20,000 bases of DNA, taken from an uncultured bacterium (GTDB taxonomy: Bacteria > B130-G9). Where the stretch lies: assembly GCA_965372715.1 (NCBI GenBank), contig CBDVDH010000010.1:55699-75698 (forward strand). The letters are read 5' to 3'. The notes under the pieces are model-generated. The model searched no databases. It was given only the letters and a program-made list of their open reading frames with translations, and was not told where the DNA came from. Below are positions 1-2,905 of the stretch, piece after piece. How positions within the stretch are numbered: position 1 is the first letter of the stretch; each line of letters starts with the position of its first letter. The translations under genes and the position numbers were made by a program.

Positions 1-1124
1 ATCGTCGAGGCGTCAGGGGCGCCCGGGGCATCCTCTGTGTTGCCCACATGGTCCGTGGCTCTCGTGTAGAAATCATATACGCCATTGCCCGAGCCGAGCG
101 TTACGGCAAAGCTGCCGTTCTGAGCAGTCGAGCTGTCTATCATGCTGTAGCCGCCGCCGTCGGACTGCATCCAGAGATCGACTCTGTCCACTCCCGAATT
201 ATCGTCCGATGATGTGTAGTCAACCGTTATGCTATTGGTCTGCGACCGGCCCGGCGCGGAACAACTCGACGAAGGCGGAGTGTAGTCGTCATAGACGAAC
301 GGCCCGTTCAGCTGCCCAGCATCCGGATACCTATCCGTTCCGCCTCGTCCGTCGTCGGCCGTGAAGTAGTAAGTCGCGAGTCCCTCCTCCGGGATCGTTC
401 CCGCCCAGACATAGGTTCCATTGTCCGGATCGCCTGAATCCAAGAACATTATGCGCGGTGCATCGTTGACATAGACGAGAAGTGGCGACGGCGCGTCGCC
501 GTCAGGATCGTAGTAGTCGATGTAGAAGCTGAAGTCCGTGTCGGTCCGACCAAACGCGGGGTCAAACGAGGGATTGGAGAGCACGGGAGGCGCGTTACAG
601 TCATCAAGCATCACATCCTCTATCCTCTCCTGAAGCTCCAGCGCGCAGTCTTCGCGGCAACCCCCAGAATGATACCAGCCAATCACCACGTCGCAGCCGA
701 TCGCCCACTCCTTGGGTATACCACCACCGCCGTCGTTATAAGCGTTTCGCCCTTCATTATAGGTGTCGAGGCCAAAGTCAAACTCGTAGCCGTGGCTATC
801 CTTGTAGCCCTGCACAGCTGCTGCGCTGTCACCCCAAAGGTCCAGAGCAAGAATCTCGACTGGGTCGCCACTAGCCTGAAAATACTCATAGATATAAGTG
901 TTAAACGCTGCCAGCGTGTATTCGCAGTGGCTTCACCCTATGCCGAATAAGCTGAGAACTACAATCTTGTCTTCGTATTGTTCGTGCAGCCAAACATCGT
1001 TTCCGTCCAGGTCTTGGTACCTAATGTCGGGCGCAGCATCGCCTTCTCCCGGCGCGCCCCAGGCAAGTGCGCTGGCGAAGATAAACGCTACCAGCAGGAT
1101 TGACAAAAGGATATTCCGATGCAT
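1..1124 (-). CDS. Putative secreted selenoprotein: signal peptide + TlpA/AhpC-TSA (thioredoxin-fold) domain with UxxC motif + Ig-like beta-sandwich domains; 3' end beyond window
   Basis: ATG at 1124 after SD AAGGAGGT. Signal peptide MHRNILLSILLVAFIFASALAWG, then redoxin start 'GDAAPDIRYQDLDGNDVWL..YEDKIVVLSLFGIG'. TGA at 935-933 is followed in frame by SHC. Manual translation stays open to base 1 (EYTLAAFN...EILALDLWGDSAAAVQGYKDSHGYEFDFGLD...GIPKEWAIG...NAPPVLSNPSFDP...YYDPDGDAP...DYTPPSS...SDDNSGVDRVDLW...YDFYTRATDHVGNTE). Confidence 0.85.
905..917 (-). promoter_or_regulatory. Candidate bacterial SECIS hairpin
   Basis: mRNA ACGCU-GGC-AGCGU: 5-bp stem, G-initiated apical loop, loop 20 nt downstream of the UGA. 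Fits the general bacterial SECIS model, but the stem is short. Confidence 0.55.
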
Positions 1125-1207
1125 TGCTTACCTCCTTTTTAGGTTTCGCATCGCTGTCACAGCCGCTGAGCCCCTTGTGGCTCTACGAGCGGCACAAATA
1201 GCCCAAG

Positions 1208-1289
1208 TGGGGAGAGGAGGGTTCGAACCTCCGAAGGCTACGCCAACAGGTTTACAGCCTGCCCCCTTTGACCACTTGGGTATCTCCCC
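1208..1289 (-). tRNA. tRNA-Tyr (GTA)
   Basis: GGGGAGATACCCAAGTGGTCAAAGGGGGCAGGCT-GTA-AACCTGTTGGCGTAGCCTTCGGAGGTTCGAACCCTCCTCTCCCCA. Acceptor stem GGGGAGA/TCTCCCC, long variable arm, GTTCGAA T-loop; CCA not encoded. Confidence 0.97.
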
Positions 1290-1322
1290 ACAAAAAATAG
1301 CACAACGCTCATTGCAAAGTCA

Positions 1323-1394
1323 AGCTGGCGAAGGGAGTCGAACCCCCGACCGGCTGATTACAAATCAGCTGCTCTACCACTGAGCTACGCCAGC
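1323..1394 (-). tRNA. tRNA-Thr (TGT)
   Basis: GCTGGCGTAGCTCAGTGGTAGAGCAGCTGATT-TGT-AATCAGCCGGTCGGGGGTTCGACTCCCTTCGCCAGCT. Canonical cloverleaf; CCA not encoded. Confidence 0.97.
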
Positions 1395-1418
1395 CCAGTA
1401 TCAATAATCTCTCCACGT

Positions 1419-1658: not shown

Positions 1659-2138
1659 TCAACCCCGCTGCGCCACAGTCGCCACCGCAAAGGCCGCGAT
1701 GCCCTCTTTTGCGCCCAAGAAACCCAGCCCCTCGGTGGTCGAGGCCTTGACGCTGACGCACGGCAGGGGAATGCGCAGGGCGCCGGCTATCGCTTCCCGC
1801 ATCCGGGCATAGTGGGGGCCAAGCTTCGGCTCCTGCGCGATAATCACGCTGTCAATGAATTCGGGAACGTAGCCGGCCTTTTCTATCGTCTCACGGACCT
1901 TCGCCAAGAGGTCGAGGCTGAAGGCGTCCTTGTAACGAGCGTCGGTGTCTGGGAATTGCTGGCCGATGTCCGGCAGACAGGCTGCACCCAAGAGGGCGTC
2001 GGAGATGGCGTGGCAGAGGCAGTCCCCGTCAGAGTGCCCCAGAAGACCCTTTTGGTATGGAACCTCGACGCCGCCCAGCACCAGCTTGCGGCCGAAAGCG
2101 AGCCGATGACAATCAAAACCTATTCCGAACCGAACCAT
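1659..2138 (-). CDS. ispF: 2-C-methyl-D-erythritol 2,4-cyclodiphosphate synthase
   Basis: RFGIGFDCHRL, LVLGGV, GLLGHSDGD..CHAISDALLGA, DIGQQFPDTD, VSVKASTTEGLGF motifs; overlaps the ispD end. Confidence 0.97.
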   Translation of the reverse strand: MVRFGIGFDCHRLAFGRKLVLGGVEVPYQKGLLGHSDGDCLCHAISDALLGAACLPDIGQQFPDTDARYKDAFSLDLLAKVRETIEKAGYVPEFIDSVIIAQEPKLGPHYARMREAIAGALRIPLPCVSVKASTTEGLGFLGAKEGIAAFAVATVAQRG

Positions 2139-2845
2139 TCCCCGCTCCTCGCGCTCAAGAGGGCGTTTGCGATCGCAAGATCATCCTGGAACGTGACCTT
2201 CAGGTTCGCCGGATGGCCTCGCAGAATCCTGATCTTGCCTCCTATCGCCTCAACCAGCGCAGCGTCGTCAGTGGCGACCAGTCCCTCAGCCCTGGCATGT
2301 TCGTGAGCCTTCAGCAGCCACTCTTTCTTGAAGACCTGCGGCGTCTGGACCTCGTAAAGGTTTTCTCTCAAGACCGTTTGCTGCACGATCCCATCAGCCG
2401 TCGCGCGCTTCAAGGTATCGGTAACAGGGACCCCGTAAATCGCTCCTGCGCAATCGCCGAGCCCCTCGATTGCCGAGGCCACCCATTCACTCCGCAACAT
2501 AGGCCGCACAGCATCGTGGATCACGACGATCTCCACCCTTTCGTCGCACGCGTGCAAACCGTTGAACACTGAATCCTGGCGACGCGGGCCGCCAAGGACG
2601 GTCCTGGTCAACTTTGGGAATCGCCCCGCGGGAGCAAGCGACTCGAAGCGCTTTCTGCCCCCTTTGGAGAGCACAAGAACTATCTCTGACACGCCCTCGC
2701 AGCTCTGAAAGGCCTGAACCGAATACAAGACCATCGGGACCCCGCAGACCTCAACGAAAGGTTTCTCAACGCCCGAACCCATCCTAGCGCCCAAGCCGCC
2801 CGCAACTACTATCGCTGAAACGAACATCTGACTGTCCTTCATCAT
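2120..2845 (-). CDS. ispD: 2-C-methyl-D-erythritol 4-phosphate cytidylyltransferase
   Basis: AIVVAGGLGARMG..KPF, GGPRRQDSV.NGL, VVIHDAVRP, PVTDTLK, QTPQVF, TDDAALVE, NLKVT..DDL. Start uncertain (ATG at 2845, 2842 or 2827). Confidence 0.96.
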   Translation of the reverse strand: MMKDSQMFVSAIVVAGGLGARMGSGVEKPFVEVCGVPMVLYSVQAFQSCEGVSEIVLVLSKGGRKRFESLAPAGRFPKLTRTVLGGPRRQDSVFNGLHACDERVEIVVIHDAVRPMLRSEWVASAIEGLGDCAGAIYGVPVTDTLKRATADGIVQQTVLRENLYEVQTPQVFKKEWLLKAHEHARAEGLVATDDAALVEAIGGKIRILRGHPANLKVTFQDDLAIANALLSARSGEWFGSE

Positions 2846-2905
2846 CGTCGTTCCATAACAGGCCGACACAAGGATGCTGTGTCACAATTCTGCAGACGGT
2901 TCTGC

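Follow-up and report, generated by a model that had tools for sequence, protein, structure and literature searches.

Selenoproteins of the UxxC redoxin type and exported selenoproteins are both already known from bacteria, and the UxxC redoxins are not known to be other than small, single-domain proteins. Here we describe a gene on the minus strand of a 20,000-nucleotide stretch of DNA (the window; G000:C10:55699-75698, G000 being the genome that carries it) from an uncultured bacterium (GTDB lineage Bacteria; B130-G9; GenBank assembly GCA_965372715.1, contig CBDVDH010000010.1). The gene very likely encodes one exported selenoprotein of 2168 residues, in which a head of the ResA/TlpA type containing selenocysteine (U) is carried on a stalk of immunoglobulin (Ig)-like repeats. 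What is new is the occurrence of a known selenocysteine redox module in a very large exported head-stalk-tail architecture and in a new lineage.

Among the described systems, the peroxiredoxin (Prx)-like thiol:disulfide oxidoreductases (PF00578; UxxC or UxxU) are listed as a bacterial selenoprotein family in the available text of two sources (PMC13188914, PMC1794560). That family and the head described here share an AhpC-TSA-type thioredoxin fold, selenocysteine at the first position of UxxC, and occurrence in anaerobes with selABCD. Compared by description, they differ in that the present head belongs to a 2168-residue multi-domain exported protein from a different uncultured phylum. The words 'surface', 'secreted', 'signal peptide' and 'uncultured' are absent from the main text of PMC13188914, the supplements of which may list such genes. 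Likewise, Coatesbacteria and selenocysteine never occur together in the literature searched, where supplements may again list such genes.

SaoC and SaoB of the SAO system are, according to the available text of their description (10.1101/2022.07.06.499078), selenoproteins with signal peptides that lie outside the cytoplasm and are truncated at UGA in databases, as is the protein studied here. They differ from it, as far as that text goes, in having CU motifs, in being small lipoproteins or substrate-binding proteins found mostly in Firmicutes, and in lying within a nine-gene neighbourhood. Unlike the SAO genes, the gene for the selenocysteine redoxin stands alone between tRNA genes.

The best profile and fold matches of the head are ResA, TlpA and CcmG (DsbE) (PDB 1st9, 4nmu, 1jfu, 2b1k), which are exported, as this protein is predicted to be, and have in common with its head an N-terminal beta-hairpin, a central insert, a CxxC at helix 1 and a cis-proline. 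They differ in having cysteine instead of selenocysteine, a length of about 140-190 residues, a membrane anchor and known clients. Etrx1 and Etrx2 of Streptococcus pneumoniae and SdbA of S. gordonii are lipoprotein- or membrane-anchored cysteine enzymes of monoderms, and the Etrx proteins feed methionine sulfoxide reductase. These surface-exposed TlpA-like redoxins (PDB 4hqs, 2yp6/4hqz, 5um7) are also among the fold matches; in contrast to the Etrx system, no methionine sulfoxide reductase MsrA (PF01625) turned up in the present genome, which is 95.9% complete.

The redoxin head and its in-frame UGA

The initial annotation of the window, made from the letters alone, had pointed to a 63-codon open reading frame (ORF; 933..1124, minus strand, ATG at 1124-1122, stop TGA at 935-933) that ends exactly where the first cysteine of a CxxC motif belongs. 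This observation stands: the context is VVLSLFGIG-TGA followed in frame by SHC, and the motif reads U64-S-H-C67. With the TGA (codon 64, 933..935, minus strand) translated as U, the frame stays open for the 310 further codons up to the window edge that had been counted, which gives 374 residues inside the window (codons 1-374 of 2168; 3..1124, minus strand) and continues past window base 1. Extension of the contig, also proposed in the initial annotation, brought the frame to a TAG at G000:C10:50316-50318 after 2104 open codons, a length far beyond chance expectation. The full-length product of 2168 residues thus contains a single in-frame TGA and no further stop. A Shine-Dalgarno sequence, AGGAGGT (1130..1136, minus strand), lies 5 nucleotides (nt) before the ATG and is as strong as had been supposed; its GGAGG core precedes the start codon in 7/7 orthologues. 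The ratio of nonsynonymous to synonymous substitution rates in six orthologue pairs, some of them synonymously saturated, ranges from 0.14 to 0.24 over codons 1-64 and from 0.14 to 0.30 over codons 66-190, and by this measure purifying selection acts on both sides of the TGA.

Several methods place residues 28-176 (597..1043, minus strand) in the ResA/TlpA-like group of thioredoxin-fold redoxins. The Pfam model AhpC-TSA (PF00578) matches residues 28-130 with 29.7 bits (cut-off 26), and a profile built from seven orthologues retrieved Bacillus ResA first when compared with the PDB (E 1.4e-10). A search of 1.84 billion representative sequences yielded 7260 proteins at E <= 0.001. From 150 proteins listed, 55 of 140-235 residues were aligned with the seven orthologues (62 sequences in total), 95 longer, multi-domain or fragmentary proteins being left out. 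Only three columns of this alignment are invariant: C64 (the U position), C67 and P137. The first cysteine of the CxxC of ResA and TlpA is an exposed nucleophile, and since U64 aligns with this invariant first cysteine, selenocysteine would replace the N-terminal cysteine of the motif, at the first and nucleophilic position of UxxC. Cys67 (TGC, 924..926, minus strand), the putative resolving residue, and Pro137 (CCC, 714..716, minus strand) of the GIP loop (residues 135-137) are invariant in 62/62 sequences.

An AlphaFold2 (AF2) model computed with this alignment has a ResA-like topology, with a mean predicted local distance difference test score (pLDDT) of 91.1 and a predicted template modelling score (pTM) of 0.81. 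Foldseek placed the ResA chains 4nmu, 1st9 and 2f9s first (target-normalised TM-score 0.84-0.87, 24-26% identity, E about 1e-11), followed by the Geobacter 'thioredoxin' 3kcm, pneumococcal Etrx2, StoA, SdbA and TlpA. In the model, the head is a ResA/TlpA-like thioredoxin fold with an N-terminal hairpin, a central insert, the UxxC at the start of helix 1 and a cis-proline, in agreement with the TlpA-like fold and the GIP cis-Pro loop recognised in the initial annotation. Assignment to the peroxiredoxins was considered and rejected. The peroxidatic cysteine of peroxiredoxins proper (AhpC/Bcp) stands in a T/S-x-x-C context; the residue three before U is G, S, G, A, A, A and A in the seven orthologues, a series read as lacking that Thr/Ser, and the site is a UxxC.

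The extra cysteines noted in the initial annotation are all present, and the four of them (residues 144, 156, 160 and 176) are invariant in 7/7 orthologues. The same region of the head profile (positions 121-181) has ten tandem weak matches, of about 9 bits each, in P0019, a protein of 2235 residues. Redoxin matches that are 24-31% identical to the head and lack a TGA occur in frames of 726-1062 codons in related genomes (G001:C29:15128-15556, G004:C90, G004:C269 and G003:C121), and Cys-type heads on other large proteins of the family may therefore exist.

Conservation of the UGA is part of the evidence for the selenocysteine reading. Residues 1-180 were searched against 60 related genomes together with G000. 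A redoxin match of some kind was found in 27/61 genomes; an orthologue at E <= 2e-33 was found in 6/6 genomes of the same family and in 0/54 others. All genomes outside the family are kin only at the level of 'same domain', so that the lineage appears isolated. Each same-family orthologue contains exactly one TGA within its frame (733 codons, reaching a contig end, and 1541, 1555, 2168, 2169 and 2193 codons), and in 7/7 genomes this TGA occupies the same UxxC column. The residues around it vary (GIGUSHC, STTUPYC, GVDUGYC, AGYUGYC, ATWUGYC twice and ATWUSHC). A further 14 loci, five from a species-genome collection and nine from Joint Genome Institute (JGI) metagenomes, all carry TGA at this column and add two new sequences, so that TGA is found in 9/9 distinct orthologues, which come from independent assemblies and are 41-72% identical. 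The metagenome scan for orthologues returned selenocysteine forms only. A cysteine form exists in the orthologue P0158, a protein of 2127 residues that its source annotated in one piece. It reads SIGCHYC and shows 54% identity across 363 residues; cysteine also occupies the U column in 55/55 of the aligned TlpA-like relatives. The interchange of Cys and TGA that the initial annotation proposed to look for at this column was thus found.

The search for sel genes that it had also proposed gave a complete machinery for selenocysteine insertion in G000: selA (567 bits, cut-off 268), selB (315 bits, cut-off 242), selD (371 bits, cut-off 125) and tRNA-Sec (75.6 bits, cut-off 47). The selD gene (G000:C97:359-1414, L055) is itself a selenoprotein gene, with one TGA in the context GAGUAAK.

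Downstream of the UGA lies a candidate upper stem-loop of a selenocysteine insertion sequence (SECIS), ACGC-UGGCA-GCGU in the window (905..917, minus strand). In the orthologues the hairpin has the form ACGC-UGGNA-GCGU; it starts 15 nt after the UGA and covers nt 19-31 (the U of UGA being 1), with the GG of its pentaloop at nt 24-25, and it gains one extra U-A pair in five more distant genomes. Codons +6 to +9 after the UGA are ACG CUG GNA GCG in 9/9 distinct sequences. Among about 680 aligned codons from seven genomes, there are 148 columns in which the residue is invariant and at least four-fold degenerate. A single codon is used throughout in just 8 of these 148, and three of the eight are +6, +7 and +9. 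The chance that three named columns fall among the eight is C(8,3)/C(148,3) = 56/529,396, about 1e-4 (a small sample), and the comparison between columns is fair because they share one tree. By this codon comparison, the synonymous sites of the hairpin are constrained beyond the protein sequence.

A hairpin of similar placement follows the UGA of selD in the same genome (AGGUC-CGGGU-GACCU, nt 14-28 after UGA, a stem of 5 base pairs (bp) and a CGGGU pentaloop). The fdhF element of E. coli has an essential G and U of the loop at about positions 23-24, and the bSECISearch model places a G in the first loop positions at 16-37 nt from the UGA; we take it that the ACGC-UGGNA-GCGU element would fit both rules. 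The conserved column, the cysteine form, the frozen hairpin and the machinery together support the initial reading of the UGA as selenocysteine, and insertion at codon 64 is, from these comparisons, the claim we hold with the greatest confidence.

Predicted export, stalk and possible site of action

The N-terminus of the protein has one arginine, a 17-residue hydrophobic run and an ALA/AWG sequence, as read by eye. As in the initial annotation, it is a predicted Sec-type (general secretory pathway) signal peptide, here of about 24 codons (1053..1124, minus strand) with cleavage near ALA/AWG, and is conserved in 7/7 orthologues, each of which has small residues at -1 and -3 (xWA or AWG, by eye) after the hydrophobic run. 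Because this predicted signal peptide contains no cysteine, the protein is not expected to be a lipoprotein.

Behind the head, a second domain (residues 178-275, NAPPVLSNPSFDP...YYDPDGDAP; 300..593, minus strand) is a recurrent module, with 59 tblastn high-scoring segment pairs on 17 contigs of the genome. Residues 274-1804 form 15 tandem repeats of about 100 residues, delimited by a phmmer self-search and recognised by models of the Big_13 (PF19077, 71.9 bits, cut-off 27) and OmpL47 types (NF047446, 76.6 bits, cut-off 40). The first repeat (residues 274-373; 6..305, minus strand) lies in the window and repeats 2-15 lie beyond its edge. A choice-of-anchor D/HYDIN-type Ig domain follows at residues 1801-1912 (NF012200, 57.7 bits, cut-off 45), and two related beta-rich domains (residues 1915-2045 and 2046-2168) form the C-terminal tail. 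The beta-sandwich modules suspected after the head are therefore Ig-like repeats in far greater number than the window could show, and the exported multi-domain selenoprotein with a stalk which had been postulated takes the form of a redoxin head on an Ig-like stalk. A regular cross-link through the cysteine of an 'SSC' motif in the stalk repeats was considered and discarded, as only about 6 of the 15 repeats have this cysteine.

Other large ORFs of the genome have the same tandem tail, which ends 0-17 residues before their stop codons. Three sister proteins in G000 carry it together with a signal peptide and without a TGA: C8:8898-18428 (3176 residues) has a head made of a subtilase and beta-propellers, C21:17052-23510 (2152 residues) a right-handed beta-helix head, and C80:4833-7142 (769 residues) a head of FG-GAP repeats. 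The proteins on C8 and C21 also have Big_13 repeats and a choice-of-anchor-D-type Ig domain, and exchange of heads around a common stalk and tail is also visible in public relatives. As judged from domain content, the selenoprotein belongs to a head-stalk-tail family whose heads are exchangeable, and since stalk and tail are common to the sister proteins we read it as one of a lineage-specific set of stalked exo-enzymes. Between G000 and G002 the head diverges faster than the stalk, the proportion of nonsynonymous differences being 0.42 for codons 1-190 and 0.11 for codons 195-680. Adaptive change may be faster in the head; alternatively, paralogous stalks may have recombined or undergone gene conversion.

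From these features the following mechanism can be proposed. SelB and tRNA-Sec would decode the UGA at codon 64 as selenocysteine, directed by the hairpin 15 nt downstream; because the UGA comes early, a failed insertion would be cheap and cost only a 63-residue stub. The mature protein would start at about residue 25 with the ResA/TlpA-type domain, in which selenocysteine would take the place of the exposed attacking cysteine of CxxC, opposite cis-Pro137. The selenolate would attack a disulfide or another oxidised sulfur species of the substrate, and the selenenylsulfide formed with Cys67 would then be reduced again. The head would thus most likely perform thiol-disulfide exchange, and oxidoreductase activity is, from family membership and active-site residues, likely. 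The stalk would hold the redox head away from the cell. BamA is present, so the genome should specify an outer membrane, and there is about an even chance, as far as the sequence can tell, that the signal peptide is cleaved and that stalk and head stand outside that membrane.

A more specific reading, which we put forward as speculative and on balance improbable, is that of stalked exo-enzymes with interchangeable heads. The selenocysteine head would then act tens of nm from the cell, on extracellular disulfide- or polysulfide-linked and possibly insoluble or polymeric material, beside the protease and beta-helix heads, and would be recycled by reductants of the environment such as sulfide and not by a cellular electron chain. 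The alternative that survives best, and which we regard as a serious minority possibility, keeps the same selenoprotein and leaves its signal uncleaved as an anchor, as in ResA and TlpA. The head would then lie on the periplasmic side of the inner membrane, kept reduced by CcdA/DsbD; the stalk would cross the periplasm or stay inside it, and the head would serve a client there, for instance in the maturation of cytochrome c or of a copper protein. The closest solved relatives, ResA and TlpA, are indeed membrane-anchored; the genome has three genes for membrane electron carriers of the CcdA/DsbD type (DsbD_TM), none of them linked to the selenoprotein gene, as well as a c-type cytochrome domain, and re-reduction would pose no problem for a head placed close to the membrane. 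The small residues at -1 and -3 in 7/7 orthologues, however, fit cleavage, the small Cys-type TlpA-like paralogues of the genome (matches on C13 and C2) could do the housekeeping, and a 15-repeat stalk and tail held in common with protease- and beta-helix-headed proteins fit exo-enzymes better.

Decoding of the UGA and integrity of the gene

A number of observations count against the reading of one exported selenoprotein gene or leave parts of it bare. For the head, the Pfam model Redoxin (PF08534) stays below its cut-off (20.5 against 26.6), as does the best NCBIfam model, ResA (39.1 against 170), and the AF2 model made with the seven orthologues alone has a pLDDT of 48.1, so that the confident model leans on the 55 distant relatives. 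For the tail, scans of the Pfam/NCBIfam type gave no named family; a search of the ESM Atlas with residues 1915-2168 returned unnamed clusters only (scores 0.91-0.93). The flanks hold tRNA genes only, with no adjacent gene for a redox partner, and no C-terminal sorting signal or secretion system was identified. The hairpin is small (4-6 bp), and its stability does not exceed that of shuffled sequences (z score -0.70 for 73 nt; -0.03 to -1.19 for 40-nt pieces). A different pairing competes with it and has the lowest energy in G000 and G001. The stem never varies, being identical everywhere, and for this reason gives no covariation signal that could be assessed. An Rfam scan of 700-1450 with E up to 10 reported only two tRNAs and chance matches, and no SECIS family. 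Finally, four sequencing runs contained no read or contig of this genome over 932-955.

Because the energy of the hairpin cannot be told from that of shuffles, we place the weight on its codon-level conservation. An unremarkable hairpin is what would be expected if the UGA were read through otherwise than as selenocysteine, by a near-cognate tRNA (Trp or Cys) or because UGA is a sense codon in this lineage. We consider this very improbable. TGA is the commonest stop of the genome and ends 766 of the 1660 ORFs of at least 300 codons, so that it is a normal stop codon and not reassigned; the matches to SelA, SelB and EF-Tu contain no internal stops. Neither kind of readthrough would account for a complete selenocysteine machinery, for a UGA placed exactly at the redox-active cysteine column, or for frozen synonymous sites in the hairpin downstream.

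Still more improbable is the reading found in public annotation, that of two products: an exported peptide of 63 residues and a protein of about 2065 residues translated from an internal start. Gene callers do yield exactly these pieces, stubs of 63-65 residues and remainders of about 2050 residues, and P0003 is annotated by NCBI as a choice-of-anchor D domain-containing protein of Candidatus Coatesbacteria. The remainders, however, start at residues that differ from one orthologue to the next and always inside the fold; as judged from these calls, there is no conserved internal start for the downstream piece, which moreover would lack a signal peptide. In the AF2 model the TGA falls within the thioredoxin fold, some strands coming ahead of it and the CxxC helix behind it, and the cysteine orthologue P0158 is continuous. 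Splitting by annotation pipelines, anticipated in the initial annotation, is thus borne out. Because gene callers read the TGA as a stop, the gene stands in databases as two broken pieces; every public call examined is either a stub of 63-65 residues or a protein named 'choice-of-anchor D' or 'Ig-like repeat' that lacks its N-terminus, so that neither the catalytic head nor the export signal can be seen there.

That the gene is a pseudogene or an assembly error, with a Cys codon altered by a nonsense mutation or a miscalled base (TGC or TGT being one change away from TGA), is in practice refuted by the presence of the same TGA in nine distinct sequences of this divergence from independent assemblies, by the 2104 intact codons downstream and by purifying selection on both sides. 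The sequencing runs add little at this point: X1, which may come from the source sample, covers only 616-766 and 1088-1200 (at least 99%), X3 stems from a diverged relative whose loose end reads the G001-type ...GAC TGA GGC TAC TGC, and the RNA run X16 covers only 1161-1197, outside every annotated part of the locus. In the run search no run contained more than 0.26 of the sampled words, and two conserved tRNA genes in the stretch probably explain most of these small shares.

Gene neighbourhood and further selenoprotein candidates

Directly upstream of the gene lies tRNA-Tyr(gta) (1207..1289, minus strand), preceded by tRNA-Thr(tgt) (1322..1395, minus strand). The tRNA-Tyr precedes the gene in 8/8 orthologous loci and the tRNA-Thr in 7/8, the eighth locus starting at a contig end; given this conserved upstream pair, the gene may be co-transcribed with the tRNAs. 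Promoter-like and terminator-like sites at the locus are no more frequent than in shuffled sequences. Downstream follow tRNA-Gly(tcc), tRNA-Thr(ggt), the EF-Tu gene and tRNA-Trp, and this 6.5-kb gene thus sits inside the usually compact tRNA-Thr/Tyr/Gly/Thr-tuf cluster (window 1207-1395; L022, 2353-4182). Upstream of the tRNAs, two overlapping ORFs of 159 and 249 residues (window 1659-2869, minus strand) resemble ispF and ispD by eye.

A genome-wide scan for in-frame TGA codons gave 10113 raw candidates. Coding signal flanked the TGA on either side in 362 of them, and a more stringent filter left 87; a Pfam scan covered eight of the candidates. L048, L049 and L053 were rejected, being clearly pairs of neighbouring genes in one frame. 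L052 (G000:C58:10070-12376, minus strand) encodes a secreted protein of 769 residues with BNR/Sortilin-type repeats. Its codon 153 is an in-frame TGA (GGGUGPDC), and a strong hairpin lies behind this codon (z -3.4; 0/200 shuffles fold equally well). Its orthologue in G004 also has the TGA (GGGUGPTC). Those in G001 (GMGRSS) and G002 lack both U and C, and for this reason the difference is read as loss of a loop and not as a swap of selenocysteine for cysteine. From its sequence context L052 is a probable second exported selenoprotein. L050 (G000:C18:40191-41597, minus strand), an ORF of 469 residues, has a signal peptide, a C-terminal cytochrome c554-type domain and a TGA at codon 52 (APCGUKSKE). 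A hairpin CUUGCU-GGUCG-AGCAGG follows the TGA by eye, and the minimum-energy fold differs; L050 is a candidate selenoprotein. At G000:C11:51792-53291, an ORF with NVWCAAGK, presumably the cap-helix signature of HgcA, ends at a TGA and is followed in the same frame by a 2x[4Fe-4S] ferredoxin-like ORF ending in CCGGE. By eye these two ORFs look like the mercury-methylation genes hgcA and hgcB.

Together with its orthologues, the locus offers an example of a putative compact, lineage-specific SECIS (a stem of 4-6 bp and an NGGNN pentaloop) which could improve the prediction of selenoproteins in candidate phyla. It places a putative selenol at the tip of an exported protein of 2168 residues, in contrast to the small UxxC redoxins known so far, and in a phylum that comes up in only 8 papers of the literature searched. 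If the head works outside the cell, the question arises how an extracellular selenenylsulfide is recycled. Should it be true that stalked exo-enzymes of this kind rely on reductants of the environment, the protein would be the first bacterial selenoenzyme to act outside the cell envelope without a dedicated reductase.

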